From an uncultured Candidatus Saccharibacteria bacterium (GTDB lineage Bacteria; Patescibacteriota; Dojkabacteria; CAZCSM01): 64,000 nucleotides of DNA. The position numbers and the translations under genes were made by a program. The notes below the pieces were generated by a model. The model was not told the DNA's origin, made no database searches, and worked only from the letters and a program-made list of their open reading frames with translations. The stretch is taken from contig CAZCSM010000006.1 of assembly GCA_964501355.1 (NCBI GenBank), positions 2,347-66,346 of the forward strand. Reading direction: 5' to 3'. Shown here piece after piece: positions 23,020 to 58,342 of this stretch. Position 1 is the stretch's first letter, and the number at the start of each line of letters is the position of its first letter.

Positions 23020-24729
23020 ATGGCTATTAGCGTTGCCGAACTACAAAAAGCCCTTGTTGAGTCAAAAAAACTGAGTGCTGAGGATTTTGATAAAATTAAC
23101 GAAACCGCGAATCGGTTGAATTCTACCGTAGAGCAGGTTCTTCTCGGAAAGGGTTTCTTCTCAGAAGCCGAATTGGGAGCATTACTTGCGAAACGCTATG
23201 GTGTTGATTTTGTTGAATTAGGTAAGCAGGAAATCACTCCTGACATATTGTTCTCCATTCCAAAGGAAATTGCCAGTCGAAAGAAGGTTATTGTATTCGC
23301 TAAGGACCGCGGAATAATGAGTGTGGCAATGTCAAATCCCTTAGATTTGGAAACACTCGATTACATAAAGAAGAGTACAGGATATAACGTAAAGGTATAT
23401 TACGCATTTGAAGAAAGTATTAATGATGCTCTGCGTGCCTATCAAAAGGATATCAAGTTAGCTTTTGTAAATTTAATTGAGGAACAGGCCGAGAAGACAA
23501 AAAAAGAGAAGGGGGCTATTGAGGATGTTGCGAAAAAGATTCCTATTGTTAAGTTGGTTGACACGCTTATCGAATATGCTGTTAATGAGGGGGCCAGTGA
23601 TATTCACATTGAGCCTTTAGAAGAAGAGGTTTTGATTAGATACCGAATAGATGGACAGCTTAGAGATATAACTACGCTTCCAAAAGAAATTCTTCCCATT
23701 CTGATTGCAAGAATTAAAATCATTGCCAATTTACAAATAGATGAGCATCGTTTACCACAGGACGGAAGAATAAACACTATAGTTAACAATAGTAAAGTTG
23801 CTCTTCGAGTCTCTGTTCTTCCTCTATTCTACGGTGAGAAGATAGTGATGAGAGTTTTAGAAGAAACTGCACGGCGTTTCAGTTTGGAGGATCTAGGTGT
23901 TTTAAACCACAACCTCGAGGTTATGAAGAGAAATATCTCGAAGCCCCATGGAATGGTTTTGGTGACCGGGCCGACAGGTAGCGGAAAAACAACCACTCTT
24001 TACACGGTGCTTAGCATTCTCAATACAACTGATGTTAATATTAATACAATTGAAGATCCGATTGAATACAGTATGCCTCGAATCAACCAGACTCAGGTTA
24101 ATGCGAAAATCGGTTTTACATTTAGCGTTGGGTTGAGATCTCTTCTACGGCAGGACCCTGACATAATCATGGTCGGTGAAATTCGTGACAAGGAAACTGT
24201 ACAAATGGCTGTCAATGCTGCAATGACGGGCCACCTTGTTCTGTCCACATTACATACAAATAATGCAGCAGCATCTATCCCGCGTCTTTTGGATATGGGT
24301 GTTGAACCATTTCTTGTAGCTTCAACGCTAAATGCTGTAATGGCTCAGCGATTAACTCGGAAACTTTGTAACGAATGTAAGGAAAAGTATGAGATTCCCG
24401 AGAAGCTGCTAGCGAGCCTTAAAACAGATCTTGAAAAACAAGGATTAACTGCTGCACAGATAAAAGAGGCTGTGGGAGACGGTCATTTCTACAAACCCAT
24501 TGGTTGCAAAAAATGCGGCAATAAAGGTTACAAGGGACGACTTGGTATCTACGAGGTCTTAGAGATGTCCCCAAAGATTATGGAATTAGCTGTATCTGAT
24601 GTCGTTACATATGAGCTTCAAAAGACCGCTATTAAGGAAGGTATGACTACAATGTTATATGATGGAATTACAAAGGCTCGCGAAGGTTTGACCACTTTAG
24701 AAGAAGTATTAGCCGCAACTAGAGAATAA
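23020..24729 (+). CDS. pilB: Type IV pilus assembly ATPase PilB (GspE family), locus 1
   Basis: N-terminal GSPII_E_N domain, Walker A VTGPTGSGKTTTLY, Asp/His boxes, and a tetracysteine CNEC...CKKCG. Confidence 0.85.
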   Translation: MAISVAELQKALVESKKLSAEDFDKINETANRLNSTVEQVLLGKGFFSEAELGALLAKRYGVDFVELGKQEITPDILFSIPKEIASRKKVIVFAKDRGIMSVAMSNPLDLETLDYIKKSTGYNVKVYYAFEESINDALRAYQKDIKLAFVNLIEEQAEKTKKEKGAIEDVAKKIPIVKLVDTLIEYAVNEGASDIHIEPLEEEVLIRYRIDGQLRDITTLPKEILPILIARIKIIANLQIDEHRLPQDGRINTIVNNSKVALRVSVLPLFYGEKIVMRVLEETARRFSLEDLGVLNHNLEVMKRNISKPHGMVLVTGPTGSGKTTTLYTVLSILNTTDVNINTIEDPIEYSMPRINQTQVNAKIGFTFSVGLRSLLRQDPDIIMVGEIRDKETVQMAVNAAMTGHLVLSTLHTNNAAASIPRLLDMGVEPFLVASTLNAVMAQRLTRKLCNECKEKYEIPEKLLASLKTDLEKQGLTAAQIKEAVGDGHFYKPIGCKKCGNKGYKGRLGIYEVLEMSPKIMELAVSDVVTYELQKTAIKEGMTTMLYDGITKAREGLTTLEEVLAATRE

Positions 24730-25952
24730 TGAAATTTAAATATACAGTTACAGACAAAAAGGGGCAGGTTGTAAAAGGCGAGATGGTTGCTCGAACACAG
24801 TCAGAGATTGAATCCAATCTTCTGGAGGATGGTTATACTGTTTTGGCGATTGAGCCGGAAAAGGAATCGTCGGAATCTTCAAAAAAACAATCCGCACTTT
24901 TTCAAAAGAAAATTTCGTTACAGGAAAAGATTCTTCTTTTCACAAACTTGGCGGCAATGCTTAAGGCTGGATTGCCTGTTGTTGATGCGATTGATGTCCT
25001 AAAGGAAGGTCAAAAGAATCAGAGATTGATAGAAATACTAGATGTAGCAAGTTATGACATCCAGGGTGGTATGACCTTTCATTCCGCATTGAGCAAGTTT
25101 CCCGATGTTTTTACGACAATGGACCTTAGTATGTTTGAAGTCGGAGAAGTAGGAGGTATGTTAGAAGAGAATATCAGAACGCTGGCAACAGAATTAAAGA
25201 ATCAAAAAGATCTTCAGTCGAAAGTAAAAGGTGCAATGATGTACCCTATGGTGATTTCAATTGCTTTGGTGGCAATCGTAATATTGCTTATTATTTTCGT
25301 AATACCGCAGATTGCAGGCTTTTTCAAAGACGCTGATTTGGAGTTGCCAATTACAACAAGAATGTTAATCGGATTAAGTGACCTTCTTATAAATTATGGC
25401 ATATATGTTCTCGCGGTTGTAATTGCTGCCATAGTTGCTTTTCGCACAACATATAAGAAAGTAAAGAATTTCAAGCGGATGATTGACGGACTATTATTAA
25501 AGATTCCATTTGTTGGTGTTCAGATTATTAAATTAAATACAGCAAGATTTACAAAAACGTTAGCATCTCTTTTAAAAAGCGGAGTTCCAATTATTCGTTC
25601 TTTGGAAATTACGAAAAATGGCTTTTCTAATTTGATTTATCAAGAGGCTCTTGAAAGTATTGCTCAAGATATTGAATCTGGTCAAGAACTTGCAGATGCG
25701 ATGGCAAAGTTTCCAAACATCTTTTACTCAATGGCTGTTAGGATGGTAAGAGTAGGGGGGCAGACGGGAACTATCGACGAATCTCTACTAAACGTGGCGA
25801 TATATTATCAAGAAGAAGTCACGGAAATTCTCGACAACTTATCCTCTATTATAGAACCTGTTTTATTACTTGTAATGGGTGGTGGAATTGCACTAATTGC
25901 ATTATCTGTACTTGGACCTATTTATCAATTAACCGGGAGTATATCTCAGTAA
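24729..25952 (+). CDS. pilC: Type IV pilus inner-membrane platform protein PilC (GspF family)
   Basis: Two T2SSF repeats and three TM segments. Translationally coupled to pilB. Confidence 0.85.
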   Translation: MKFKYTVTDKKGQVVKGEMVARTQSEIESNLLEDGYTVLAIEPEKESSESSKKQSALFQKKISLQEKILLFTNLAAMLKAGLPVVDAIDVLKEGQKNQRLIEILDVASYDIQGGMTFHSALSKFPDVFTTMDLSMFEVGEVGGMLEENIRTLATELKNQKDLQSKVKGAMMYPMVISIALVAIVILLIIFVIPQIAGFFKDADLELPITTRMLIGLSDLLINYGIYVLAVVIAAIVAFRTTYKKVKNFKRMIDGLLLKIPFVGVQIIKLNTARFTKTLASLLKSGVPIIRSLEITKNGFSNLIYQEALESIAQDIESGQELADAMAKFPNIFYSMAVRMVRVGGQTGTIDESLLNVAIYYQEEVTEILDNLSSIIEPVLLLVMGGGIALIALSVLGPIYQLTGSISQ

Positions 25953-26417
25953 ATGAAAATGCAAAGGGGTTTTACAATGATTGAGATTATCGTTGTTATC
26001 GGCGTCTTAATGCTAATCTCGTCAGGTGCAACAATTCTTTTCCTATCAACTCAGGCAAACAATCAAAGAGAGGTAATAGTGAATGAATTAATCTCCTCTT
26101 TGCGAAAAGCTCAATCCCGAGCCATAAACGGAGAAAATCAATCCGAATTCGGTATATATTTTGAAGAGCACAAATATATCGAATTCCAGGGGGCAAGCTA
26201 TATGGAGGGTAATCCAGATAATATCGTGAACCTGTTGCCAGCTGGTGTCACTATTCGCAATATCAACTTTAATGGCGACGATTTTGTTTATTATGAAAGA
26301 ATGACGGGAGAAGCTAATTATGAGGGGAGCGTTGATATTGCTGTAGTTGGAATTGCTGATGCAAAGAGGATCTCTGTCAATAAATCAGGTATTGTAAATC
26401 TTGAGATTGTTGAATAA
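25953..26417 (+). CDS. Prepilin-type N-terminal cleavage/methylation-domain minor pilin
   Basis: RGFTMIEIIVVIGVLMLI matches the class III signal G/FTxxE. Confidence 0.7.
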   Translation: MKMQRGFTMIEIIVVIGVLMLISSGATILFLSTQANNQREVIVNELISSLRKAQSRAINGENQSEFGIYFEEHKYIEFQGASYMEGNPDNIVNLLPAGVTIRNINFNGDDFVYYERMTGEANYEGSVDIAVVGIADAKRISVNKSGIVNLEIVE

Positions 26418-26910
26418 CCCAAAATTGATGTTTAAGAATCAGCAAGGTGCTCTACTAATAGAGTTTTTAATTGTTCTTGCCCTGATTTCGATATTACTAA
26501 CTTCTGGTTTAGACATTCTAGGACCTAGCTTAAAGATTGTTTATCAGAGTGAGGAACGTGAATTTGTATCTTCTTTGATCCAGGAACAATTTGAGGTTGT
26601 TCGAAGCATTCGCGATGAAGATTGGAATGCTTTGTCAATAAATGGCACATATCATTATGAAGACATTGAGGGTGAAGAGGAAGGTTTGCGTCTGGTTGAG
26701 GATCCGATTACGTATTATGATAAATATGAAGTAGGTATTACACTCTCAGATGTTTATCGAGATTCAAACGGGGAGATTCTTGAGACTGGAGATTTAGATC
26801 AAATTGATACATATACTCGCATGATTTCAGTGTCTGTTTCTTGGGACTCATATGGCGTTTTAAAAAATGAAGTTCAAAGTATTTATCTAACAAATTGGGG
26901 TGATTTTTAG
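26401..26910 (+). CDS. Minor pilin-like protein
   Basis: QGALLIEFLIVLALISILL is a prepilin-like hydrophobic N-terminus with Glu at +5. Confidence 0.55.
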   Translation: MRLLNNPKLMFKNQQGALLIEFLIVLALISILLTSGLDILGPSLKIVYQSEEREFVSSLIQEQFEVVRSIRDEDWNALSINGTYHYEDIEGEEEGLRLVEDPITYYDKYEVGITLSDVYRDSNGEILETGDLDQIDTYTRMISVSVSWDSYGVLKNEVQSIYLTNWGDF

Positions 26911-27415
26911 AAAAGATTTAAAAAGTAATAATGATCAGGCAGGATTTACCCTTGTCGAGGTAATTATCTACATTGCCGTGTCCTCGGTAATGCTCATTAT
27001 TGTAGTTTCGTTCGTGCGCCATATCTTATTGGTAAGAAATAAAGTGACCATTTTATCCAAGGTGCAACAGAATGCTCGATATGCAATGACAAGGATGGTA
27101 AAAGAGGTGCGATATGCGGATGATTTGGAAGTTGTAGATCAGAATACTTTGAGACTTTCCGTAGGAGATCCACTTAGAAATCCATTGTATTTTGATTTAC
27201 AGGGAGGGGTTCTATATATGAAAGAGGGTCTTGGCGATTTCGTCGCAATAACAGGGAATGATGTGAAGGTTGGCGATGTGCTTTTTGAAGACCGTACAAC
27301 TCCAAATTCTGCAGACATTGTAAAAATAACTCTAACCATCTCACATCCTGACGCGAGTGTCTCTCCTGACAGTCAGGCAACTATTAATCTAGATACATAT
27401 GTGGCAAAAAGGTAA
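26900..27415 (+). CDS. Minor pilin (PulJ/PilW-like)
   Basis: AGFTLVEVIIYIAVSSVML prepilin signal. Confidence 0.65.
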   Translation: MIFRKDLKSNNDQAGFTLVEVIIYIAVSSVMLIIVVSFVRHILLVRNKVTILSKVQQNARYAMTRMVKEVRYADDLEVVDQNTLRLSVGDPLRNPLYFDLQGGVLYMKEGLGDFVAITGNDVKVGDVLFEDRTTPNSADIVKITLTISHPDASVSPDSQATINLDTYVAKR

Positions 27416-28715
27416 GTATTCACAATTTAATAAAGAGAAAGGGCAGGTCGCAATTATTGCCGTGTTAGTAGTTTCTCTAATTATGGTTTCCGTTGTTTTT
27501 GCAATCTCGAAAATGTCTCTGGATAATTATGAGATGGCTGACCTAAGTCTCTCATCCACTCAGGCATATTTTTTAGCAGAATCTGGAATAGAGGAGGGGA
27601 TTTACAGACTGAAAGATGATTTGAACTATACAGGAGGGAATTACGATACTCCTATTGGGAATTATGTAATCGAAGTCACCGATAATACGACATATTACAC
27701 AGTTCGTGCAGAAGGACATGTTGGTGGTGTGGTTCGTGCAATTACAGCAAATCTTTCAATATCCGTTGAGAGTGCAAAGATAACTGGCTATTCAGCTTTT
27801 GCAGGAGATGACGTATGGATGTTTTGGTCTAATGCAATTGTTAATGGTGACGTATGGGCGAATGACGATGTCGATTTTTCTAGTAATTCTACCGTATATG
27901 GTGATGTCATTTCTGCTGGGCGTGGAAGTTATTTTACAAGCTGGGTTTCTGATCATGCAAGTATTCTTGATAACCCGGCAACCGCAGATCGAGTTGAAGG
28001 TAACTTCTGGTCGGTAAATCAGATAAGGGTTATTTTAGAAGGGCGGGTTGCGGGAGATGCTTACAGTGAGAATGAAATAATTACTTTGCTTGGTGGTCAT
28101 ATTGATGGAACAGAATATCCGGATCAGGATTTAACGGCAGAAACAGAGCGCATAGAGGTTCCGATGTTTGATTTTTCAACGTATGAGGCACAAGCACAAG
28201 CGGGAGGAACTTTCTATGCAACGGCAACTCAATTCGAAAACTACGTTAATAGTAGGAATGATGGGAGCACTCGCACTCTTCCTGATGGAGTATATTACAT
28301 TAGAAACGGTAATGTGTTTTTTAATCCAGGGCCCCCAATTGTACTTAATGGAAGCATTATTACAGAAGGTGAGATCCGATTCTACTGTGGAGTTCAAATA
28401 AATGCTCAAAATAATTTGCCGGCGCTTGCGGCTGCAAAAGACGCAGAATTCAGAGATTACGGATGGCCAACATATGGTGGTGACTTTGTAACAATAAATG
28501 GTGTATTATATTCTGAGAGAGATATAATCTTAAGACACGATAGCAGCGGAAAGCTAATTGAGGTTAATGGTGCTGCTTGGGCTGGTGACGATTTGCGAAT
28601 CGAAAACTCCAGTACAGTGAATTTTTTGCCGGAAGTAACACAGAATGTCATCGGCTTTGGTTTTACAGTAGAGCCAGGACAGGTTTCAATAGATAATTGG
28701 CAAGAAACATTATAA
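27399..28715 (+). CDS. PilX/PilY-like large pilus-associated protein
   Basis: N-terminal EKGQVAIIAVLVVSLIMV pilin-like anchor, then a 400-aa Asp/Gly-rich beta domain. Confidence 0.4.
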   Translation: MWQKGKYSQFNKEKGQVAIIAVLVVSLIMVSVVFAISKMSLDNYEMADLSLSSTQAYFLAESGIEEGIYRLKDDLNYTGGNYDTPIGNYVIEVTDNTTYYTVRAEGHVGGVVRAITANLSISVESAKITGYSAFAGDDVWMFWSNAIVNGDVWANDDVDFSSNSTVYGDVISAGRGSYFTSWVSDHASILDNPATADRVEGNFWSVNQIRVILEGRVAGDAYSENEIITLLGGHIDGTEYPDQDLTAETERIEVPMFDFSTYEAQAQAGGTFYATATQFENYVNSRNDGSTRTLPDGVYYIRNGNVFFNPGPPIVLNGSIITEGEIRFYCGVQINAQNNLPALAAAKDAEFRDYGWPTYGGDFVTINGVLYSERDIILRHDSSGKLIEVNGAAWAGDDLRIENSSTVNFLPEVTQNVIGFGFTVEPGQVSIDNWQETL

Positions 28716-28725
28716 AATAAAATCT

Positions 28726-30465
28726 ATGACTGCCCTAGATTTTGACAAGTTAATAGAAGGTGAAGATACTTTCGGTTTGGACATTTCCAATACGAGAGTA
28801 AAAGCTATGTGGGTCACGAAATCCGGGAGAAGCAATTTACATCTTCAGAGTTTTGGTGAAGAAACAATTCCTGCAAGTGCTGTCGTAGGTGGAATAATTC
28901 GTCGTCCTGAAGTCGTTGCAGAGGCAATTAAAAAAATACTCAAAAATTCATATCCGAAACCAATTCGGACGAAATATGCCATCTGCTCAATCTCTCAAGA
29001 AAAGGTTTACCTAAAGATTGAGGATTTTCCAAATATTGAAAAGGAGAAACTTCGAGAAGCTGTCACTTGGAAAGCAAACAAGGTTCTTGCAATGCCTTTG
29101 GAAAAGATTTACTGGGATTGGCACAGACTTAATCCAAAGGAAGATGAAAGTACGGTGAGTATTCAGTTTGCAGCCGTGGAAAAGGAAGTTGTCGACTCAT
29201 ATGTCCATGCAATTCGCCTTGCCGGAATTATTCCTCTCGCATTTGAAATGGAGTCAAGTGCTGCAGGACGAGTTCTTCTAGCATCAAATGAAGAGCTTAA
29301 AGAGTCTCCATTGTTATTTGTTGATATCGGAAATAGCAATACAAATCTCTCGATTTATCATCAAGGTGGTTTTCGTTTTAATTCTTCAGTAAATGTCGGA
29401 GGAAATCAAGTAACAAAGATCATTGGTACAGAAAAAGGATTATCTCCCGTCGAGGCGGAGGAGTATCAGCGCACAACAGGACTAAAAACTAAAACAGAAA
29501 CTCTTCAATCCGCGCTTTCTGCTTCTCTCACACCAATAATCTCCGAGATGATGGGTGCAATGCGCTTCTATGATAAAACACCGGGAAAAGAAGATGACAT
29601 TAAATTGGCGAAAGTTTATGGGGATGGTGCATCGCTTAAGGGCGTCGATAAATACCTTGATGAACAGATTCCGGATCTGAAAGTGGGGTATGCAAACCCA
29701 AGTATTGGGATGATTCCGATTCCTCAATTTATTTCCCATGAGAAAATATTTCCGCATCTGGTTGTTACGGGGCTAGCGCTGAAGGGCCTCGGCAAATATC
29801 ATGAATTTGGAGATGTTAACTTCCTTCCTGCGGACGTCCAGAAAGCTTATGTAAATGAGCAGCTTAAAAAGAAAGTTGGAAATATCGTTAAGATTTTATC
29901 AATAAATATAATTGCGATTTGTGGATTCTTGTTGGGTGGACTATTTCTTCTTACTGAGGAATCGAGTCAAATCCAAGCAACAATTAATTCGAAAAAGGCG
30001 ATTCTGCAAGGTTCAAGTATTCAAACAAAGTCATTGGAGATTAGCAAATTCAATGAATCCCTTGCATCGATAAGCTCTATAATAAATTCCGAATTTGATT
30101 GGATAAAAATCTTCGATAAGATCCTTTCTGTAACTCCGGGAAATGTCGTGTTGGATAATATTGATATATATGTAGATGAGTCTTTGGCTCCGAAATCAGA
30201 ACCTATCTGGATTATTAGTCTATATGGTAGAACTGATAATAGACAAACTGTAATTGATTACAGTACAAATCTAATTTCAACGGAAGTTTTCTCAAATGTA
30301 CAAATTCCCGTTTCGGCTTTTTCTTCCGGTGAAGAGGTTGAATTTCGTATTAACATGGATCTGAGCTTTACGAATTTATTGGCAAATCCAGAAAACTTTG
30401 CTAAGAAATCTACAACACAAACAACTGGAGAATTAGAACTTAAACCTTTCACGCCTGCAAAATGA
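28726..30465 (+). CDS. pilMN: PilM-PilN fusion protein
   Basis: N-terminal FGLDISNTRVKAMWV actin-like PilM fold. One TM segment at about aa 390. A PilN-like periplasmic C-terminus. Confidence 0.65.
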   Translation: MTALDFDKLIEGEDTFGLDISNTRVKAMWVTKSGRSNLHLQSFGEETIPASAVVGGIIRRPEVVAEAIKKILKNSYPKPIRTKYAICSISQEKVYLKIEDFPNIEKEKLREAVTWKANKVLAMPLEKIYWDWHRLNPKEDESTVSIQFAAVEKEVVDSYVHAIRLAGIIPLAFEMESSAAGRVLLASNEELKESPLLFVDIGNSNTNLSIYHQGGFRFNSSVNVGGNQVTKIIGTEKGLSPVEAEEYQRTTGLKTKTETLQSALSASLTPIISEMMGAMRFYDKTPGKEDDIKLAKVYGDGASLKGVDKYLDEQIPDLKVGYANPSIGMIPIPQFISHEKIFPHLVVTGLALKGLGKYHEFGDVNFLPADVQKAYVNEQLKKKVGNIVKILSINIIAICGFLLGGLFLLTEESSQIQATINSKKAILQGSSIQTKSLEISKFNESLASISSIINSEFDWIKIFDKILSVTPGNVVLDNIDIYVDESLAPKSEPIWIISLYGRTDNRQTVIDYSTNLISTEVFSNVQIPVSAFSSGEEVEFRINMDLSFTNLLANPENFAKKSTTQTTGELELKPFTPAK

Positions 30466-31103
30466 AACAAGAAGAAGTAAAACAAATAAAAAAGCAAAAT
30501 CCAAACCAATATTATATTGTGGTAGGGTTATTTGTAGTTTCTCTCGTAGGATTATTAATCTTTAGCTATTCGCAGTTGAAGAAATCCGCGACAAAAGTCT
30601 CCGATCAACTTGCTCTGTTGAATCAGTATGCCCTGGAAGAGGCTAAGATTAATAAGCTTTTAAGTGATCATGGTGAGGTTGAGGAACAGTCATTACTTCT
30701 TACAGAAGCAATCCCAGATAAGGGGAAATTGGTGAGCTTCATTGAGAACATAGAGAAGATTGGAGAAATGCTAAATCTGGATTTAGATGTAAGACTAAAA
30801 GAGGGCGTTGTTGACGAAGATGGTGTGGTTGTTGATGTCGAATCTGAGGCAACAAAACGCGTAACTGCATATGCAGGAATATCCTCAGTGGAAGTATTGG
30901 AGGTCGGAGTTTCTGTGCGTACAGATCCGGATGAGTTTGACAAGATAATAAACTTTATCGGTATGCTCGAAGATCTTAAATATTATTCGAGAATTGTTGA
31001 TATGAAATTTATTTCTGGGTTAGACGATCGAGATGGGAGATATTATCTCGATAGTATTTTCACATTAAATTTATATGTTAAAGCCGGTACAGAATCAAAG
31101 TGA
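30462..31103 (+). CDS. pilO: PilO-like bitopic inner-membrane pilus alignment protein
   Basis: Single N-terminal TM, coiled-coil and a C-terminal alpha/beta domain. Sits after pilMN in the locus. Confidence 0.45.
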   Translation: MKQEEVKQIKKQNPNQYYIVVGLFVVSLVGLLIFSYSQLKKSATKVSDQLALLNQYALEEAKINKLLSDHGEVEEQSLLLTEAIPDKGKLVSFIENIEKIGEMLNLDLDVRLKEGVVDEDGVVVDVESEATKRVTAYAGISSVEVLEVGVSVRTDPDEFDKIINFIGMLEDLKYYSRIVDMKFISGLDDRDGRYYLDSIFTLNLYVKAGTESK

Positions 31104-31402
31104 AAGAATTATCAGATAAAATACAAAAGAATATAGTAATTTACATAGAAGTGTTTATTTATGCCGTAATGCTTGCTGTAAACATTTTCTTCGCCTTTGA
31201 AATATATGCGAAGGTCATAGAGAAAGTTGCTCCCAGTGCAAAGACGGTTGAGCTGGAAATCTCAAGTCTAAATTCTCTCAATGAAGACTTGCTAAATGTT
31301 TTCAAGGAAGATCATCAGGAAAGAAAGACCTATATTGAGAGTGGTGATGGTACGTTTGAGAATAAATGGCAAACTCTCTCAAATCCACGCTCTCCATTCT
31401 AA
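31100..31402 (+). CDS. Small membrane protein of the pilus locus
   Basis: 100 aa with one TM segment. Coupled to pilO. Confidence 0.3.
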   Translation: MKELSDKIQKNIVIYIEVFIYAVMLAVNIFFAFEIYAKVIEKVAPSAKTVELEISSLNSLNEDLLNVFKEDHQERKTYIESGDGTFENKWQTLSNPRSPF

Positions 31403-31484
31403 CTTCCCCCTGAACTCAAGATTTCTACATTTAACTTGTTAAGATTCGTGTGCGTTCGCTGTATTGTCTTTTTTTCTGCAATAG

Positions 31485-31515
31485 AAAAATCCCCTATAGA
31501 ATAGGGGATTTTTCA
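31485..31515. terminator. Bidirectional rho-independent terminator between pilus locus 1 and the convergent pilA
   Basis: Perfect palindrome AAAAATCCCCTATAGAATAGGGGATTTTT with A and T runs on both sides. Confidence 0.6.
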
Positions 31516-31536
31516 TGCTTACCTTGGAAATAGATC

Positions 31537-31998
31537 TTAGTATGTCAAGTAGAACTTTGTTTCTTCTTGATCTGCATTCACTTCCATATTGTTTGTTGCA
31601 ACAATGATGTGTTGAGGTGATGCTGTACTATCTACACCGATTAGATACTCTGTAGTTCCATCTGGGTCTACAGGTAGTTCACTTAGATAAGTTGTAAGTC
31701 CATCAAGGTCACTTACGTTACATGCGCCTGCTGTTCCACAAGTAGGTGCTCCAGATACTGTTAATGAATCAAGTGCTGCTCCGCCGATTGTTGGGAAGGC
31801 ACCATTATTATCAATAGTATAAACACTTACTGCTTGAAGAACTGCATTCACATCTTCTCTTCGTCTCGAGTTTCTTGCATCTTGGAATCTTTTCACAGGA
31901 TTTAATGCAACAAGTGTTACAACTGCGAGAATACCAAGAATAGCGATGACTACAAGGATTTCAATTAAGGTAAAACCTTTTTGATTAAGCTTTCTCAT
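31537..31998 (-). CDS. pilA: Type IV major pilin (PilA-like)
   Basis: KGFTLIEILVVIAILGILA prepilin signal and a strong AGGAGGTG ribosome-binding site. 153 aa. Confidence 0.8.
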   Translation of the reverse strand: MRKLNQKGFTLIEILVVIAILGILAVVTLVALNPVKRFQDARNSRRREDVNAVLQAVSVYTIDNNGAFPTIGGAALDSLTVSGAPTCGTAGACNVSDLDGLTTYLSELPVDPDGTTEYLIGVDSTASPQHIIVATNNMEVNADQEETKFYLTY

Positions 31999-39280: not shown

Positions 39281-39303
39281 AAGAAGCTTCCCCTACTTTC
39301 TTT

Positions 39304-50288: not shown

Positions 50289-52088
50289 ATGTACGCGTCT
50301 CAAAGCGTTGCTGAAAAATTACTCGAAAAAGGTACTATTAACGCGGATCAATTCTCTGCGGCTCGTTCAGAATCATTGCGAAAAGGCGTTGCGGTAGAAG
50401 ATGTCTTACAAAGCGATGGTGTTGTAAGTGGTGTTGATATTGCAAAAGCAAAGTCTGAAATTTATGATATCCCGTTTGTTGATCTCCTTGAATTATCCTT
50501 TGATAAAGATGTAATAAGCAAAATCTCAGCTGATGTTGCTCGTCGTCAGAACGCTATTCCATTCAAAGCAACCGAAACCGCTCTTGAAATTGCCATGAAA
50601 GATCCTTTGGATATTCAGGCTGTAAACTATCTCTCAAAATTAATCGGACAAAGGATAATTCCTTATTATGCCGATCCGGCTGCGATTGAGAAAGTGATTG
50701 ATTCTCAGTATAAAGAAGAGTTTGCTGGTGAAGTTACGGAAGCTATTGAAGAAGTTTCAGAGGATAAACCAAAGGAAATTGAAGAGCAGATTTCTGATGT
50801 TGGAAAAGTTGAAGAAGAGATTCAGCGTGCACCTGTCGCTCGTATTATCAATATGATGCTTGAGTACGCTGTTAAATCAAAGGCTTCTGATATTCATATT
50901 GAGCCAAGTGAAACGAAGCTTCGAGTTCGGATGAGAATACATGGTGTTCTAGTTCAAAAACTTGAAATGCCAATGAGTGTTCATCCTGCACTTGTTTCTA
51001 GAATCAAAATTTTGGCGAAACTGAAAATTGATGAAAAGAGAGTTCCTCAGGATGGTCGTTTTGGTATAAAACTGAAGGGGAAAGAAGTTGACCTTCGTGT
51101 CTCTACGTTACCTACAATTGACGGTGAAAAAGTTGTTATTCGTTTGCTTGATCGTTCAAGCGGAATTTTTAGTTTAGAGGAAACGGGGCTTAGAGGAAGT
51201 GCATATAAATCATTTTTAGAAGCCTTAACCTTAACGACAGGAATTGTGCTTGTGACGGGTCCGACCGGTAGTGGTAAAACACAAACTCTTGCAAGTTCAC
51301 TTGATAGGATTAATACAGAGAAAATAAATATTATCACACTTGAGAATCCTGTTGAAATTAAGATTCCCGGTGTTAACCAGGTTAATGTTAATCCTGATGC
51401 TGGGCTAACTTTTGCCTCAGGTCTTCGCTCTATTCTTCGTCAGGACCCTGATGTTGTGATGGTCGGTGAAATTCGTGATGGAGAAACGGCAAGACTTGCA
51501 ATGCAGGCTTCTTTGACTGGTCATTTGGTGTTTTCTACACTTCACACGAATAGTGCGGCGGGAGCACTTCCTAGGCTTATTGATATGGGAATTGAGCCAT
51601 ACCTTATTGCTTCCACCGTTCATTTGGTTGCAGCACAAAGACTTCCTCGAAAAATTTGTCCTTTTTGCATGGAGAGCTATGTGGCTACCCCCGAGGTCGC
51701 AAAAGATATTGTCGATGTACTGGGTAACTTAAAGATTGATATTGTCTCTCACTCGAAACAATATTGCCCAGTTTGCAAAGCAGGACAACCCTGCCCTCAT
51801 ACAGAAATTGAAAAGGATGATATTCCTGACATTGATCAATTAATTCTTTTCCGAGGGAAAGGATGCGAAAAGTGTGAAGGAAGCGGTTATTCAGGAAGAA
51901 TTGGAATTTATGAAGTATTGAATGTTACTGACAAGATTGGTAAATTAGTAATGGAACAAAGCTCTACAAGTCAGATTGACGATTTGGCCAGAGCGGAAGG
52001 CATGATTTCAATGACACAGGATGGGTACTTGAAAGCTTTGGAGGGAATAACTACGATTGAAGAAGTTTTAAGAGTTTCAAAAGCATAA
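50289..52088 (+). CDS. pilB: Type IV pilus/T2SS assembly ATPase (PilB/GspE), locus 2
   Basis: GSPII_E_N-like N-terminus, Walker A VTGPTGSGKTQTLA and an extended Cys cluster CPFC..CPVC..C..C. Confidence 0.85.
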   Translation: MYASQSVAEKLLEKGTINADQFSAARSESLRKGVAVEDVLQSDGVVSGVDIAKAKSEIYDIPFVDLLELSFDKDVISKISADVARRQNAIPFKATETALEIAMKDPLDIQAVNYLSKLIGQRIIPYYADPAAIEKVIDSQYKEEFAGEVTEAIEEVSEDKPKEIEEQISDVGKVEEEIQRAPVARIINMMLEYAVKSKASDIHIEPSETKLRVRMRIHGVLVQKLEMPMSVHPALVSRIKILAKLKIDEKRVPQDGRFGIKLKGKEVDLRVSTLPTIDGEKVVIRLLDRSSGIFSLEETGLRGSAYKSFLEALTLTTGIVLVTGPTGSGKTQTLASSLDRINTEKINIITLENPVEIKIPGVNQVNVNPDAGLTFASGLRSILRQDPDVVMVGEIRDGETARLAMQASLTGHLVFSTLHTNSAAGALPRLIDMGIEPYLIASTVHLVAAQRLPRKICPFCMESYVATPEVAKDIVDVLGNLKIDIVSHSKQYCPVCKAGQPCPHTEIEKDDIPDIDQLILFRGKGCEKCEGSGYSGRIGIYEVLNVTDKIGKLVMEQSSTSQIDDLARAEGMISMTQDGYLKALEGITTIEEVLRVSKA

Positions 52089-52116
52089 ATTAAATTACTT
52101 ATTAATAAATATCAAA

Positions 52117-53244
52117 ATGCCCGAAGATACAACACAAACAAGCGCAAGTGTTACTGCAGTACCTACTCAAGCATTGAAACCTTCAGGACCTTTGACTATG
52201 GCGAAGCTTTTGCAGCTCGTTGTTGATAGAGATGCTTCGGATCTTCATCTTACTGCCGGTTATCCTCCTATTCTTCGAATTGACGGAAAGCTTGTTTCTT
52301 ACGGAGTTAAACCTTTGGAAGCGGAAGATGTAAAAAAGCTTGTTTTGCAGACATTACCGGATGAACAAAAGGAACTACTTGAGGTGAACAAAGAAGTTGA
52401 TTTGTCATATGCTTTCGAAGAAAAAGCAAGATTTAGAATCAACGCCTATAACGAGAGAGGAAATGTTGCTGCTGCATATCGTTTGATTCCACAGGAGATA
52501 AGGTCTATGGAAACGTTGGGACTTCCGCAAATCTTTCATGAATTCACAAAACTTCCACAGGGTCTGGTTTTGCTTACAGGTCCTACCGGACATGGAAAAA
52601 GTACTACGCTTGCTGCTCTATTGAATGAAATTAATATGACCCAGGCAAGACATATTGTTACGATCGAAGACCCTATTGAATACCTTTACCCTGTTGGAAA
52701 ATCTCTTGTTGATCAAAGAGAGCTTCACAGAGATACTCATTCTTGGGAGATTGCTCTTCGAAGTGTTCTTCGTCAGGACCCTGATGTTGTTCTTCTCGGT
52801 GAGATGCGAGATTACGAAACAATTTCAGCGGCAATAACAGTTGCTGAAACGGGTCATTTGGTATTTGCGACTTTGCATACAAATAGTGCATCTCAATCAA
52901 TCGATAGAATAATCGATGTTTTTCCTGAACATCAACAGGCTCAGACACGAACACAGCTTGCAAATATTCTTGAAGGGGTTGTTTCTCAGCGACTTGTCCC
53001 CGTAATAGGTGGTGGTCGAAAAGCTGTTGTTGAAGTAATGCTTGCAACATCTGCCGTCAGGAATACAATTAGAGAAGGTAAAACATACCAAATTGATAAT
53101 ATTATTGCAACCAGTGGTGATGTGGGGATGATAAGTTTAGAGAAGTCACTTGTGAATCTTGTTCGCGAAGGAAAGCTAACGCTTGAAGAAGCTCAAGCCC
53201 ACTCTCTCAAACCAGAGGAGATTGTAAGATTGGTTCGGGGATAA
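52117..53244 (+). CDS. pilT: Twitching-motility retraction ATPase PilT
   Basis: Walker A LTGPTGHGKSTTLAAL plus the PilT-specific motifs GEMRD and AHSLKPEE. Confidence 0.85.
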   Translation: MPEDTTQTSASVTAVPTQALKPSGPLTMAKLLQLVVDRDASDLHLTAGYPPILRIDGKLVSYGVKPLEAEDVKKLVLQTLPDEQKELLEVNKEVDLSYAFEEKARFRINAYNERGNVAAAYRLIPQEIRSMETLGLPQIFHEFTKLPQGLVLLTGPTGHGKSTTLAALLNEINMTQARHIVTIEDPIEYLYPVGKSLVDQRELHRDTHSWEIALRSVLRQDPDVVLLGEMRDYETISAAITVAETGHLVFATLHTNSASQSIDRIIDVFPEHQQAQTRTQLANILEGVVSQRLVPVIGGGRKAVVEVMLATSAVRNTIREGKTYQIDNIIATSGDVGMISLEKSLVNLVREGKLTLEEAQAHSLKPEEIVRLVRG

Positions 53245-53264
53245 AGGAAAATTTAAAATTAAAA

Positions 53265-53633
53265 ATGAAAAATTTTAAAAAAGAGGAGAAAATTCAGTAT
53301 AGGGCTTATGCTTTTTCTCTTAATGTTATAAATCTTTTAAAGAGAAGTAAGAAACATGATTATATAAACGAGGTTCTTTTCAAGCAAATACTTCGTTCTG
53401 TAACTTCGATTGGAGCAAACATTATTGAGGGTCAAGCGGGAATTAGTCGTAAGGAGTTTCGAAATTATATGAGTATTGCACTCAAAAGTGCAAATGAAAC
53501 AAAATATTGGTTAGCACTAATACGAGATTTAAGGATATTTGTGAAAGATGATGTTGACTCGTTAATAGAAGAGTCAATAGAGATTGCAAATATATTAGGA
53601 GCGATTGTCTTCAAGTTAAGGAAAAATGACTAA
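53265..53633 (+). CDS. Four-helix-bundle protein (23S rRNA intervening-sequence protein family)
   Basis: 122 aa. SIGANIIEGQ...SANETKYWL matches the TIGR02436-type four-helix bundle. It is flanked by inverted A/T-rich repeats. Confidence 0.7.
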   Translation: MKNFKKEEKIQYRAYAFSLNVINLLKRSKKHDYINEVLFKQILRSVTSIGANIIEGQAGISRKEFRNYMSIALKSANETKYWLALIRDLRIFVKDDVDSLIEESIEIANILGAIVFKLRKND

Positions 53634-53680: not shown

Positions 53681-54895
53681 ATGCCGAAATTTTACTATAC
53701 AGCTAGAACTAAAACGGGAGAAGAACGAAAAGGAGATGTCGAGAGCAATTCAAAAGGTCAAGTTGCCGACTTGCTTCGCTCAAAAGGACTCGTTCCTATT
53801 GAAATTGATGAACAGAGAGGCTTCAACTTTGAGAAGCTTTCTGAAACGAATGTCGGCGGAGTGCCCATGAACGAGAAGGTTGTCTTTATGAGGCAGCTTG
53901 CGACCATGGTCGGTGCAGGATTACCACTTGTTCAAAGTATCGAAATTCTACAAGCTCAAGCTCAGAATAAGGCTTTTCAGGTTGCTCTAAAGAATATTGT
54001 AGATGCAATTCGTGGAGGTAGTAATCTTGCAGATTCAATGGATAAACAAACGGGAGTGTTTGATGAAATTACTGTTAATCTTGTCCGTGTTGGTGAGGAA
54101 ACAGGAAAGTTGGAGGAGATATTCAATCGTCTTGCGGATGATATGGAAGATCAGCGAACTTTTAGAAGCAAAGTTCAAAGTGCAATGGTCTACCCAATAA
54201 TCATAATTCTAGTTATGGTTGCGGTCGTTGGGATTCTTCTTGTCACAATGGTGCCTCAAATGACTGAAATGTATCAGGAATTTGATGCTGAACTTCCTCT
54301 TCCCACGAGGATGATGGTTTGGTTGAGTGATGTTTTAATTAATTATTGGTGGTTGGTAGGACTTCTTGTTGCTATTGTTGTAGGAAGTTTCGTTGCTTAT
54401 CGTAGATCTCCCGCCGGTCGAGAAATTACTGATAGTCTAATGTTAAAGATTCCGGTTTTTGGGAAATTGATGAGAGATGTTCAGGTCGCCGATTTCACAA
54501 GAACTTTTGAGTTGATGATGGCTAGCGGTATTGATATTACAAAGGCACTTGAAGTAACAGCTGCATCCCTCAGCAATATCATGTTTCGAAAAACAGTTGA
54601 GGCGACGATTAAGAAAGTAGAAAAAGGTGTTCCTCTCGCTGTGCCGATTTCTGAAGATCCCAACTTTCCTGTGATTGTCAGCCAGATGATTGCTGTCGGT
54701 GAAGAAACCGGGAAAGTCGATGTAATCCTGGGCAAATTAAATGAGTATTACACGGAAGAAGTTAACCATACAGTAAATAACTTGACAGCTTTATTGGAAC
54801 CAATTATCTTAGTAGTGATGGGTACTGTTGTAGGATTTATTGCTATAGCAATTTACCTTCCAATATTCCAAATTGGAGAAACAATGGGCGTTTAA
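53681..54895 (+). CDS. pilC: Type IV pilus platform protein PilC/GspF, locus 2
   Basis: Two T2SSF repeats and three TM helices. 404 aa. Confidence 0.85.
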   Translation: MPKFYYTARTKTGEERKGDVESNSKGQVADLLRSKGLVPIEIDEQRGFNFEKLSETNVGGVPMNEKVVFMRQLATMVGAGLPLVQSIEILQAQAQNKAFQVALKNIVDAIRGGSNLADSMDKQTGVFDEITVNLVRVGEETGKLEEIFNRLADDMEDQRTFRSKVQSAMVYPIIIILVMVAVVGILLVTMVPQMTEMYQEFDAELPLPTRMMVWLSDVLINYWWLVGLLVAIVVGSFVAYRRSPAGREITDSLMLKIPVFGKLMRDVQVADFTRTFELMMASGIDITKALEVTAASLSNIMFRKTVEATIKKVEKGVPLAVPISEDPNFPVIVSQMIAVGEETGKVDVILGKLNEYYTEEVNHTVNNLTALLEPIILVVMGTVVGFIAIAIYLPIFQIGETMGV

Positions 54896-54973: not shown

Positions 54974-55390
54974 ATGGAGCAAAAACAAAAAGGTTTCACA
55001 ATCATTGAACTTCTCGTAGCTATGGCAATCTTGGGTCTGCTTATTGCTGTTATGATTCCTGGTATTGCCGTTGTTAGAAGAGGTGCTAGAAACACGGCAA
55101 GAAGAACTAGTTTGCAGGCTATCCAAGCCGCAATTGAAGATTATTATGGTACGGCTAGAAAATATCCGACCGTCACAAACAATGCTCCATCAGGGATTAC
55201 AATTAACTATACCGGTGCTGATGCGGAAGTTGATTCTCAGTTTACAGATACAGCTGCCACTGCTGCTTGTGGTAGTGCAATTAGTGATGTACAGTTTCGC
55301 TATAAATATGAATTAGTTACAGGTGGATACAAGCTAACTGCTTGTATGGAACCGGACGGTGAATCTTATATTCTGGATGGCACAAACTAG
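54974..55390 (+). CDS. Type IV pilin with C-terminal disulfide loop
   Basis: KGFTIIELLVAMAILGLLIAV prepilin signal. C-terminal Cys pair CGSAIS...KLTAC. Confidence 0.7.
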   Translation: MEQKQKGFTIIELLVAMAILGLLIAVMIPGIAVVRRGARNTARRTSLQAIQAAIEDYYGTARKYPTVTNNAPSGITINYTGADAEVDSQFTDTAATAACGSAISDVQFRYKYELVTGGYKLTACMEPDGESYILDGTN

Positions 55391-55416: not shown

Positions 55417-55446
55417 TAAAAGAGAACCTTCGGGTTCTCTTTTGTT
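55417..55446 (+). terminator. Rho-independent terminator after the pilin gene
   Basis: AAAAGAGAACC-ttcg-GGTTCTCTTTTGTT. Confidence 0.6.
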
Positions 55447-55474
55447 ATGGGATGGATACCGTGAATAATATTTT

Positions 55475-56752: not shown

Positions 56753-57295
56753 ATGTCTAATAAGTACTGCTCGAGAAACGGTTTTACAATAATTGAGCTG
56801 ATGATTGTGATGGCTATCATCGGTGTTCTTATGCCACTTGGTATCAATGCCTTTGTGAGTACGCGCCGATCAAGGGAAGTCGCAGAAGCTGCTGCAAACG
56901 CTCGCGATGTAATTAAAAGTGCTCGTGCAATGGCGCTTTCTGTCTCTTCGCCAATAACCGAGACTGATTGGCCCGTTGCGTATGAAGTGGTTTTCTCAAG
57001 TGGTAATAATACCGTGACAACAAATACTAGAGCCGTATCTGGTGATGAGCAATATTCGGACTGGGTTGCGGCTCCGGGATACTCAACGACGCAAGTCTCT
57101 TCATTGAATTTTGCGCCAGCATCTGTTTCAACACCTTCTTGTGATCGTGTTGTGTTTTCAAGCGTAAATGGGGAGATGTTCATCTATGATTCAATCTATG
57201 GAGTAAAGAGTAGTTGTACGATAACATTCACTTCGGGTAATAAAACTAGAACATTAGTCCTAAATTCTGCGCTTAAGCAGTTTGATATAGAATAG
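56753..57295 (+). CDS. Minor pilin (prepilin-type)
   Basis: NGFTIIELMIVMAIIGVL prepilin signal. Confidence 0.65.
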   Translation: MSNKYCSRNGFTIIELMIVMAIIGVLMPLGINAFVSTRRSREVAEAAANARDVIKSARAMALSVSSPITETDWPVAYEVVFSSGNNTVTTNTRAVSGDEQYSDWVAAPGYSTTQVSSLNFAPASVSTPSCDRVVFSSVNGEMFIYDSIYGVKSSCTITFTSGNKTRTLVLNSALKQFDIE

Positions 57296-58307: not shown

Positions 58308-58342
58308 AAAAGATAAAAGATAAAAGATAAAAGATAAAAGAT
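58308..58342 (+). repeat. Heptanucleotide tandem repeat (AAAAGAT)x5 running into the ATG of the downstream gene
   Basis: Five perfect units read directly, ending ...AAAAG-ATG at 58341. Confidence 0.8.

Follow-up and report, generated by a model that had tools for sequence, protein, structure and literature searches.

Nanosynbacter lyticus TM7x (Saccharibacteria) has a PilT-containing and a PilT-less type IV pilus (T4P) system, and experiments have shown that the two produce distinct filaments that serve different functions (Grossman et al., bioRxiv 2024 / ISME J 2025, PMC11623550). Compared with monoderm type IVa pili, those of TM7x are reportedly much thinner (PMC11623550). For CPR bacteria in general, the excerpted text of Méheust et al. 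(2019, PMC6744442) describes co-localised PilB, PilT, PilC, PilM ("GspL domain"), PilN, PilO, PilD and pilins, and reports the absence of PilQ, consistent with the absence of an outer membrane. The DNA described here holds the same co-localised components; in that excerpt, however, PilB and PilT are treated as one family within a single T4P component set, and two loci are not distinguished.

The window analysed here (the whole stretch of DNA, 64 kb) contains two pilus loci, locus 1 (23020-31998) and locus 2 (50289-64000). With a probability of roughly 0.8, we read their genes as encoding two distinct type IVa-like pilus machines that diverged long ago and use no secretin; PilT belongs to one of them and is missing from the other.

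Sequence comparison of PilB1 and PilB2 places the host genome in CPR/Patescibacteria, as the named relatives of both are all Patescibacteria, with Dojkabacteria (WS6) the nearest. A host of this group is an ultra-small bacterium. The first-pass annotation had deduced a monoderm envelope from sortase, LCP, lgt and lspA. Family searches confirm sortase, LCP and LspA in the window, whereas the "lgt" ORF (18817-19692) has a sub-threshold Pfam LGT match (E 0.0029, 17.4 bits versus a cut-off of 24.9), and lgt and lspA are not diagnostic for monoderm versus diderm cells. A monoderm-type envelope nevertheless fits the taxon, because PilQ and the outer membrane are reported absent from CPR/Patescibacteria in the excerpt cited above (PMC6744442). 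Profile searches found no secretin-family match among ORFs of at least 100 aa in the window, in line with the earlier claim that PilQ/GspD is missing; statements on secretin, PilD and PilT cover the 64-kb window rather than the whole genome.

Locus 1 is a tightly packed plus-strand operon with pilA1 convergent downstream:

23020..24729, + strand: PilB1, extension ATPase of the PilT-less system (Pfam T2SSE 452 bits, plus MshEN)
24729..25952, + strand: PilC1, platform protein (two Pfam T2SSF domains)
25953..26417, + strand: minor pilin 1a, prepilin motif G/FTMIE at residue 6 (N_methyl E 2e-6)
26401..26910, + strand: minor pilin 1b, prepilin motif G/ALLIE (N_methyl E 0.0047)
26900..27415, + strand: minor pilin 1c, prepilin motif G/FTLVE (N_methyl E 4e-7)
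27399..28715, + strand: predicted ComZ/GspK-like tip pilin, 438 aa (hydrophobic N-terminal helix, no Glu5; pilin-like sheet; beta-solenoid)
28726..30465, + strand: PilM-PilN fusion, 579 aa, GspL-like architecture (PilM_2 at residues 17-353)
30462..31103, + strand: PilO-like protein, 213 aa (predicted fold: TM, coiled coil, two alpha-beta-beta units)
31100..31402, + strand: 100-aa single-TM protein, last gene of the operon (ORF overlapping the pilO1 stop)
31485..31512, no strand: terminator-like hairpin flanked by A and T runs (AAAATCCCCTAT-aga-ATAGGGGATTTT, read from sequence)
31537..31998, - strand: PilA1, candidate major pilin of locus 1, G/FTLIE (N_methyl E 8e-10)

To judge from its sequence, locus 1 is a complete-looking type IVa-like gene set; its ORFs are intact and catalytic motifs are present, and neither PilT nor PilD is encoded in it. 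PilB1 scores 577 bits on the NCBIfam model for T4aP PilB (TIGR02538; below the cut-off of 675.65), 559 on the GspE model and 267 on the ComGA model, and its top PDB match is PilB of M. xanthus (E 2e-130). PilB2 behaves alike (574, 570 and 254 bits), so that both lie under the trusted T4aP PilB cut-off with GspE nearly equal. When the two are aligned, Walker A, Walker B and the CxxC...CxxC pair are seen in PilB1, and PilB2 is longer by about 30 residues in the zinc-finger region, where it has additional Cys. The pilC1 start codon overlaps the stop of pilB1, and PilC1 scores 306 and 257 bits on the GspF and PilC models, both under their cut-offs. The PilM-PilN fusion exceeds the TIGR01175 cut-off (134.7 versus 133 bits) and has a VNFLP motif just ahead of a TM segment, a sub-threshold Pfam PilN match in its C-terminal half (E 0.0044) and a conserved length of 570-577 aa in the related loci L087, L088, L089 and L091.

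The 213-aa ORF has no sequence-family match in Pfam and NCBIfam profile searches. In Foldseek, the top match of its low-confidence single-sequence AF2 model (pLDDT 61.6) is chain O of 3jc8, a model of the M. xanthus pilus machine (E 2e-6); from the chain letter, we take this chain to be PilO. P. aeruginosa PilO (2rjz, prob 1.0) comes next. Its positional ortholog in L088 matches Pfam PilO (E 3e-4), and we predict that the ORF is PilO-like. The 100-aa protein keeps its position in L087, L089 and L091 with 26-33% identity.

The three minor pilins (25953-27415) share a G/(F or A)-x-x-x-E prepilin motif, and orthologs of minor pilin 1b occupy the corresponding place in L087, L088, L089 and L091. 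The 438-aa protein that follows, first annotated as PilX-like, is predicted from its modelled fold to be a ComZ-like tip pilin with a GspK-like domain and a beta-solenoid of about 300 residues. The Thermus thermophilus competence pilus tip ComZ/PilA2 (Salleh et al. 2019, PMC6561018; PDB 6QVI) likewise joins a GspK-like pilin domain to a triangular, ice-binding-protein-type beta-solenoid, lacks a clear PilD site and is encoded after a run of minor pilins. The two are 11-14% identical in sequence, and T. thermophilus, in contrast, is a diderm with PilQ and uses one PilF ATPase for both functions. The hairpin between the end of the operon and the convergent pilA1 appears terminator-like in both directions. 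Among NCBIfam models, PilA1 scores best on GspG (45 bits, under the cut-off; the match covers profile positions 1-107 of 134).

Locus 2 lies entirely on the plus strand:

50289..52088, + strand: PilB2, extension ATPase of the PilT-containing system (T2SSE 437 bits, plus MshEN)
52117..53244, + strand: PilT, retraction ATPase (TIGR01420 452 bits, over the 319 cut-off)
53265..53633, + strand: four-helix-bundle gene (23S_rRNA_IVP family), 122 aa, between pilT and pilC (PF05635 E 1.5e-23; TIGR02436)
53681..54895, + strand: PilC2, platform protein (two T2SSF domains; GspF 366 bits, PilC-Myxococcus 362 bits)
54974..55390, + strand: PilA2, candidate major pilin of locus 2, G/FTIIE (N_methyl E 3e-9)
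55420..55447, + strand: intrinsic terminator-like hairpin directly 3' of pilA2 (AAGAGAACC-ttcg-GGTTCTCTT then TTGTT, read from sequence)
55592..56446, + strand: PilD, prepilin peptidase (A24_N_bact E 2e-31, Peptidase_A24 E 7e-13)
56753..57295, + strand: minor pilin 2a, prepilin motif G/FTIIE (N_methyl)
57299..57715, + strand: minor pilin 2b, prepilin motif G/ASIIE at residue 13
57712..58263, + strand: minor pilin 2c, prepilin motif G/FTLIE (N_methyl)
58341..59096, + strand: putative PilX/GspK-like protein, 251 aa (hydrophobic N-terminus EKGQV..., no Glu5)
59093..61081, + strand: cysteine-rich surface protein, 662 aa, 40 Cys, N-terminal anchor (four DUF4215 repeats, E 8e-21; TIGR02232 115 bits)
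61175..62320, + strand: cysteine-rich surface protein, 381 aa, 22 Cys (DUF4215/TIGR02232)
62347..62718, + strand: CheY-like single-domain response regulator (Response_reg E 1e-25)
62781..63812, + strand: PilM2 (PilM_2 188 bits; TIGR01175 213 bits, over the cut-off)
63816..64000, + strand: PilN2, N-terminal 61 codons, cut by the window end (MAEKGQGVNLLP... then TM segment; VNLLP motif)

These genes look like a full retractile type IVa-like set, with PilO probably past the window end. In WS6 relatives, ORFs of 233 aa and 238 aa follow pilM, the former with a weak PilN match. PilT has the Walker A motif GPTGHGKST, the Walker B motif DPDVVLLGEMRD, a His box and AVRNTIRE. PilD is the sole prepilin peptidase in the window, and the assignment of both PilT and PilD to locus 2 alone holds within it. 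The 122-aa 23S_rRNA_IVP family gene is bordered by inverted A/T-rich repeats, is present at the pilT/pilC junction in L092 and absent from it in L084, L085, L090 and L093, and is probably not a pilus component. PilA2 has a Gly+Ala+Ser+Thr content of 37%. Minor pilin 2b has no match in the Pfam search and a positional ortholog (39% identity) in L084. The 251-aa product has no family match in Pfam or NCBIfam; it is similar to the locus-1 tip pilin at the N-terminus, and shares 32-36% identity with its positional orthologs in L084 and L090. Its stop is overlapped by the start of the gene for the 662-aa protein, a candidate adhesin, whose similarity to the 381-aa protein is confined to the repeat. 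In relatives, the matching region encodes unrelated Cys-rich proteins.

All pilus genes named at first pass were recovered at their positions by Pfam/NCBIfam searches, ORFs, prepilin motifs or the PilO fold match; its list had missed the 122-aa and 100-aa genes, and the gene order it called mirrored is in fact collinear on the plus strand. The paralogy it proposed is borne out, and by sequence the loci are old paralogs rather than the near-identical recent duplicates that would have argued against it, because PilB, PilC and PilM are 39%, 32% and 26% identical and the PilB copies fall in separate clades (bootstrap 100 for PilB2, 76-86 for PilB1). The deep branching of both clades relative to diderm PilBs is weak (bootstrap 38-49) in this tree, which was built without sequences from the monoderm T4aP organisms Clostridium and Streptococcus sanguinis; CPR cells differ from those organisms in being episymbionts.

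Each locus type recurs in relatives. In GTDB species genomes, pilB is directly followed by pilC with no adjacent pilT in all 80 PilB1-type loci examined, which indicates from gene order that the PilT-less type is widespread in Patescibacteria, and four relatives, with PilB identity as low as 53%, retain locus 1 gene for gene. The six PilB2-type loci examined all have the order gyrA-gyrB-holB, then pilB-pilT-...-pilC-pilin-pilD-minor pilins-response regulator. In L085/L086 and L092, pilM comes directly after the regulator, which has the same position in the others. One relative (71-73% identical) has both loci on one contig in the same order (L084 and L087), and sample ERR15087767 holds both types.

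The major pilin of locus 1 appears conserved, whereas the pilins of locus 2 diverge fast. PilA1 is 68-80% identical in relatives with 71-73% identical PilB1, and PilA2 is 29-31% identical in relatives with 71-73% identical PilB2, a contrast drawn from three locus-1 and two locus-2 comparisons in one small clade; locus-2 pilins overall are 29-40% identical.

The likeness to TM7x, a member of the same superphylum, is close in gene content: one locus with PilB, PilT, PilC, PilD, PilMNO and about five pilins, the other with PilB, PilC and PilMNO and no PilT. Secretin is absent from TM7x and from the window here, both encode large "PilX" proteins of the tip type in which no PilD site can be recognised, and a recombination gene adjoins the PilT-less locus. 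In contrast to TM7x, the host here is of another class (Dojkabacteria-like), PilM and PilN are fused, locus 2 encodes cysteine-rich cargo proteins, and the full minor-pilin set and major pilin lie within the PilT-less locus rather than in a third locus. The tip is a predicted beta-solenoid, as opposed to the beta-propeller (PilX2) and jelly-roll (PilX1) of TM7x. By analogy with the TM7x experiments (PMC11623550), the two pili may have divided roles in this genome, as the first-pass annotation had suggested.

One such role could be DNA uptake. Locus 1 would then be a competence pilus whose ComZ-like beta-solenoid tip binds extracellular DNA, with retraction by PilT in trans or by PilB-independent collapse, DNA passing to ComEC for nucleotide scavenging and transformation, and host contact and motility left to locus 2. 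The Firmicutes Com (ComG) pilus, which takes up DNA, resembles locus 1 in lacking a secretin and PilT in a monoderm envelope. Both PilBs here differ from it, however, in their long N-terminal MshEN domain and in scoring 254-267 bits on ComGA (below the cut-off of 300) versus 574-577 on the PilB model, and PilMNO is present here, whereas ComG operons are not known to have it. CPR bacteria are unable to make nucleotides and are naturally competent (PMC11623550). The predicted tip and the conserved major pilin also favour uptake: PilA1 is above GyrA in conservation between relatives (80% versus 72%), as a universal ligand would predict, while locus-2 pilins diverge. Furthermore, yebC-ruvCAB adjoins locus 1 here and in three relatives, and recX lies two genes downstream in one Dojkabacteria relative. 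This linkage is local rather than general, because recA is nearby in 2 of the 80 PilB1-type loci and recX or a convincing ruv gene in none of them. TM7x mutants in the PilT-less T4P-2 have wild-type competence (PMC11623550), locus 1 has no dedicated retraction ATPase, and a beta-solenoid does not imply DNA binding, since cellulose-binding tapirins and ice-binding proteins share the fold. We regard uptake by locus 1 as unlikely.

Considerably more doubtful is the reading of locus 1 as a short pseudopilus that would act like a type II secretion piston and push proteins through the monoderm cell wall. The order of locus 1, E-F-(G)-H-I-J-K-L-M, is canonical for type II secretion, the PilM-PilN fusion is GspL-like, a retraction ATPase is absent, the tip has a GspK-like domain, and among NCBIfam models PilC1 and PilA1 score best on GspF and GspG, respectively. 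Yet GspE/F/G scores are all under cut-offs, the T4aP PilB model gives PilB1 a slightly higher score, GspC and GspD are absent, the envelope is monoderm-type, and locus 2, clearly with PilT, has the same order; the long beta-solenoid would suit an exposed adhesin or receptor, and the TM7x PilT-less locus gives visible thin filaments (PMC11623550). That the loci are redundant copies of one system, one being lost, is disfavoured and scarcely credible: PilD and PilT are missing from locus 1 and some Saccharibacteria clades have a single T4P system (PMC11623550), but intact ORFs and catalytic motifs, gene-for-gene conservation in relatives, the wide spread of PilB1-type loci, a highly conserved major pilin and paralogs 26-39% identical all speak against decay.

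As two separate pilus machines, the loci could work as follows. Locus-1 prepilins would be processed by the PilD of locus 2. Locus 2 would build a retractile pilus for twitching and pulling the cell onto its host, and the fast divergence of its pilins and the variability of its cysteine-rich proteins may reflect adaptation to particular partners. Locus 1 would build a second filament, non-retractile or retracted by PilT in trans, with a beta-solenoid tip that may bind a conserved ligand. Neither pilus would need a secretin, we propose, because the cell has no outer membrane.

This interpretation has largely been published already, for CPR pili without PilQ (Méheust 2019) and for the dual TM7x pili (Grossman 2024/2025). 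What is added here is a widespread PilT-less locus type with a fused PilM-PilN and a predicted ComZ-like tip pilin, together with an apparently conserved locus-1 major pilin set against fast-diverging locus-2 pilins and variable cysteine-rich surface proteins.

The window holds two type IV pilus loci where the first-pass annotation had placed them, as an ORF listing and Pfam and NCBIfam scans bear out. Locus 1 (23020-31402, plus strand) is a nine-gene operon whose starts and stops overlap or abut, and locus 2 (50289-64000, plus strand) begins with PilB2. Their gene order, previously described as mirrored, is in fact collinear. PilT and PilD are confined to locus 2 within the window, as had been claimed; no second PilT is found there, and locus 1 thus has no PilT of its own.

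Components of the two pilus loci
Locus 1, first two genes: PilB1 and PilC1
Locus 1: three prepilins, with motifs G|FTMIE, G|ALLIE and G|FTLVE
Locus 1, 27399-28715: 438-aa protein, hydrophobic at the N-terminus and without Glu5
Locus 1: 579-aa protein, PilM fused to a PilN-like half with a VNFLP motif and then a TM segment
Locus 1, operon end: 213-aa PilO-like protein, then a 100-aa TM protein
31537-31998, convergent, downstream of the locus-1 operon: pilin gene pilA1
Locus 2, after PilT and ahead of PilC2: four-helix-bundle gene, overlooked in the first-pass annotation
Locus 2: PilC2, then PilA2 (54974-55390), with a canonical terminator hairpin after pilA2 (read by eye)
Locus 2 only, downstream of PilA2: PilD
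Locus 2, after PilD: three prepilins and the 251-aa PilX-like protein (58341-59096)
Locus 2: two cysteine-rich DUF4215/TIGR02232 proteins, then a CheY-like receiver
Locus 2, window's end: PilM2, then PilN2 as far as codon 61, including a VNLLP motif

Together the loci encode eight prepilin motifs (class III signal G|F-x-x-x-E) and the core minor-pilin set of type IVa pili, including a GspK/PilX-like member without Glu5. Both PilC proteins have the two T2SSF domains of a platform protein, and both PilBs have the T2SSE core, N-terminal GSPII/MshEN domain, Walker A/B motifs and zinc-binding Cys pairs that mark a PilB. PilT scores 452 bits on TIGR01420 (cut-off 319), with Walker A, Walker B, His-box and AVRNTIRE motifs intact. 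PilM scores above the model cut-off in both loci, and PilN, called from its motif and a sub-threshold match (Pfam PilN, E 0.0044, for the PilN-like half of the locus-1 fusion), takes its place in a PilM-PilN-PilO subcomplex. PilO2 falls past the window end, where relatives carry PilO. Searches of Pfam, NCBIfam and PDB sequences identified neither PilO1 nor either PilX-like protein, and structure prediction alone helped. The 213-aa protein, folded from its single sequence, gave a weak model (pLDDT 61.6) whose top Foldseek match is chain O in 3jc8, a model of the M. xanthus pilus machine; we take this chain, from its letter, to be PilO. P. aeruginosa PilO (2rjz) is also among the matches (prob 1.0), and on this low-confidence fold match the protein is PilO-like, a putative PilO1. 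A terminator-like bidirectional hairpin, read by eye, separates the locus-1 operon from pilA1; promoter and terminator scans gave counts near chance.

The two loci are paralogous, as first proposed, and they are old paralogs: PilB, PilC and PilM share 39%, 32% and 26% identity, the pilins align at the N-terminus only, and the sole DNA repeat common to both is a 66-nt Walker B region (74-79% identity). Protein identities of 26-39% rule out a recent duplication and therefore remove one of two findings, near-identical recent copies, that the first-pass annotation had named as refuting its reading. On profile scores both ATPases fit the T4aP PilB model best (577/574 bits for PilB1/PilB2), under its NCBIfam equivalog cut-off of 675.65 and barely higher than on the GspE model (559/570, cut-off 630). 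The ComGA model gives 267/254 bits (cut-off 300), far under the PilB-model scores. For PilC1/PilC2 the ComGB and GspF models give 137/146 (cut-off 240) and 306/366 bits (cut-off 424), and the GspG scores of the pilins are 45 bits (PilA1) and 38 bits (cut-off 89). By these scores the window has no ComG-type pilus with a ComGA-type ATPase and ComGB/ComGC equivalogs. The best solved-structure relatives of both PilBs are Myxococcus, Geobacter and Thermus PilB/PilF. In a neighbour-joining PilB tree (573 columns), built solely from CPR sequences and three diderm references, the PilB2 sequences form a clade (bootstrap 100) apart from a PilB1 clade (76-86). Sisterhood of the two CPR clades has a bootstrap of just 49, and this tree does not settle how they relate to diderm PilBs.

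In PilB2 (50289-52088) the C-terminal zinc-finger region is enlarged by about 30 residues, further cysteines among them. Because members of the PilB2 clade (proteins P0008-P0042) range from 586 to 751 aa, this region or another appears to be a variable insertion site.

No family match to a secretin (PilQ, GspD) was found among all ORFs of at least 100 aa in the window, and the earlier statement that none is present holds to that extent. PilQ absence is reported across CPR in PMC6744442, which describes CPR cells as having no outer membrane; a secretin would for that reason not be needed. Among the envelope genes listed previously, sortase, LCP and LspA are confirmed, while lgt has a sub-threshold match only: a 291-aa polytopic membrane protein (18817-19692), encoded ahead of a DksA-type zinc-finger gene and of lspA, matches Pfam LGT at E 0.0029 and could represent a highly divergent Lgt.

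Every named relative of either ATPase belongs to Patescibacteria/CPR, the nearest being Dojkabacteria/WS6. At 511-3013 an IF-2B-family protein, possibly a ribose-1,5-bisphosphate isomerase, adjoins a 500-aa glycosyl-transferase-family-3 protein (AMP-phosphorylase-like), which we take to be a nucleoside-salvage pair known from CPR and archaea and typical of CPR. We examined 80 loci with a PilB1-clade ATPase from GTDB species genomes, with labels including Paceibacteria, Komeilibacteria, Kaiserbacteria, Nomurabacteria and Jorgensenbacteria. In all 80, pilB is followed directly by pilC with no adjacent pilT, and the complete locus-1 architecture recurs in a named Dojkabacteria MAG. A metagenome scan with PilB2 returned only three loci. 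The order gyrA-gyrB-holB, then pilB-pilT-(IVP)-pilC-pilin-pilD-minor pilins-response regulator, is found in 6/6 PilB2-type loci; in L085/L086 and L092 pilM directly follows the regulator, and in the window two cysteine-rich genes precede the regulator and pilM follows it. In a relative with 71-73% identity (L084 and L087), a single 36.8-kb contig holds both loci, ordered as in the window and in matching surroundings, and a second sample also yields both. Hence a pairing of one retractile with one PilT-less system extends to a Dojkabacteria-like lineage, and the PilT-less type is common across Patescibacteria.

About 20 of the 80 PilB1-type loci (L002-L067, Parcubacteria-type) have a CheY-like receiver directly upstream of pilB, often with a pilin gene or a pair of them alongside. 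The window and its Dojkabacteria relatives have the receiver in the PilT-containing locus instead; wherever pilM can be identified there, the receiver lies upstream of it. One Patescibacteria genome (L038, 191-11887) has a PilT-less locus and, 9 kb downstream on the same strand, a second pilB-pilT pair, whose PilB is equidistant from PilB1 (40%) and PilB2 (39%) of the window.

The four-helix-bundle gene between pilT and pilC (122 aa, within 53236-53680) belongs to the 23S rRNA IVP/TIGR02436 family and is flanked by inverted A/T-rich repeats of the AAAATTAAAAATTAAAAA type. It is missing from this junction in four relatives and present in L092 (13849-14190), with 38% protein identity. Its family includes Avd proteins; a diversity-generating retroelement was considered and rejected, the window having neither a reverse transcriptase nor a template/variable repeat pair. 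The stretch from the pilA2 terminator to pilD contains two palindromes, perfect or nearly so and related to each other, GTAGGGAACAG...CTGTTCCCTAC and GTAGGGACAGGTCGCGACCTGTACCTAC (55474-55553). The AAAATTAAAAATTAAAAA-type motif recurs after a tyrosine integrase gene (37676-37720). That region (36571-39397) contains a 93-nt direct repeat, 89% identical, with one copy (37620-37712) covering the 3' end of the integrase gene and the other at 39305-39397. Between the repeats are an AbiEii-type toxin (38501-39280) and, upstream of it, a 207-aa gene without a family match; the arrangement looks like a cassette inserted at the integrase gene end with target duplication.

The 438-aa protein of locus 1, modelled from a nine-sequence alignment (pLDDT 85.5), is predicted to have a long N-terminal helix, a pilin-like sheet and a beta-solenoid, and its Foldseek match is ComZ (E 9e-9). 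[quoted passage not shown] The model thus points to a ComZ-like tip pilin, a GspK-type pilin domain with a triangular beta-solenoid. The family has 6155 representatives at E<=1e-3 and occurs in 29/80 PilB1-type loci; its ligand could be DNA or a glycan.

Conservation was compared in a few genomes at equal motor identity (PilB1 71-73%, PilB2 71-73%, GyrA 72%). PilA1 is 80, 68 and 72% identical in three relatives, above GyrA in one, with the locus-1 minor pilins 1a-c at 45-67% and the tip pilin at 54-59%. In contrast, PilA2 has 31 and 29% identity in two relatives at the same genome distance; identities there are 34-40% for the locus-2 minor pilins 2a-c and 32-36% for the PilX-like protein. Downstream of these minor pilins, each close relative encodes different large, cysteine-rich, N-terminally anchored proteins (window 59093-62320, L084 19506-21254 and L090 13165-16512, a further PilB2-type locus). 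Their cysteine counts include 40 and 22, those of the two window proteins, and 36; DUF4215 repeats occur in some, and beyond the repeat the proteins are not similar. No such protein is encoded here in WS6 relatives. This part of the pilus operon could be an interchangeable adhesin slot. As judged from few genomes, the locus-2 filament may be fast-evolving and partner-facing and the locus-1 filament may have a conserved ligand.

In T4aP, PilD cleaves and methylates prepilins, a complex of minor pilins and tip primes assembly on PilC, PilB powers extension and PilT retraction, and PilM-N-O link the ATPase to the platform. Both loci would follow this scheme, with locus 1 presumably borrowing the locus-2 PilD and being either non-retractile or served by PilT in trans. 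Saccharibacteria TM7x (Nanosynbacter lyticus) likewise has one locus with PilB, PilT, PilC, PilD, PilMNO and pilins and one with PilB, PilC and PilMNO without PilT (PMC11623550), a likeness in gene content. In genetic tests the TM7x system with PilT proved essential, with a link to twitching (PMC11623550), and the thin filaments made by the PilT-less one speed host binding, with competence unaffected (PMC11623550; ISME J 2025).

Evidence that locus 1 serves DNA uptake is mixed. The ComZ-like fold, the conserved pilin (DNA being a universal ligand) and a local yebC-ruvCAB/recX neighbourhood speak for it; the TM7x competence result (PMC11623550) and the occurrence of the same fold in adhesins speak against it, and so does the finding that recombination genes are not generally linked to such loci. 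With E. coli RecA as probe, recA was found in the fetched flanks of 2/80 PilB1-type loci, and recX or a convincing ruv gene in 0/80; a general association of PilT-less loci with recA/recX/ruv was accordingly rejected. A secretion pseudopilus is an unlikely reading of locus 1: its gene order is T2SS-like, E-F-(G)-H-I-J-K-L-M, but no GspC or GspD was found in the window and the GspE/F/G scores all fall under their cut-offs. That the two paralogous loci are simply redundant is unlikely too.

Our boldest reading is that the PilT-less, PilM-PilN-fused systems of the PilB1 clade form a distinct, ancient, CPR-wide filament class that takes up extracellular DNA through a ComZ-like tip and an unusually conserved major pilin, while the PilT-containing system, equipped with fast-evolving pilins and exchangeable cysteine-rich adhesins, serves as a host-specific grappling hook; we give it a probability of roughly 15%.

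CPR/Patescibacteria comprise perhaps a quarter of bacterial diversity, and type IV pili are thought to be their main tool to find, bind and feed on hosts; to our knowledge, experiments on CPR pili are limited to Saccharibacteria. The central points of the first-pass annotation are correct but already known for the superphylum, and the locus pair leaves the current picture unchanged and adds detail: a Dojkabacteria-like host, the wide spread of the PilT-less clade, the fusion of PilM to PilN and the T2SS-like gene order, the ComZ-like tip, the conservation contrast and the cysteine-rich cargo. Testable candidates follow, namely the ComZ-like tip pilin, the conserved versus hypervariable major pilin and the variable cysteine-rich surface proteins in a pilus operon. 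If the DNA-uptake reading is true, nucleotide-auxotrophic, ultra-small bacteria would have a dedicated DNA-feeding pilus.
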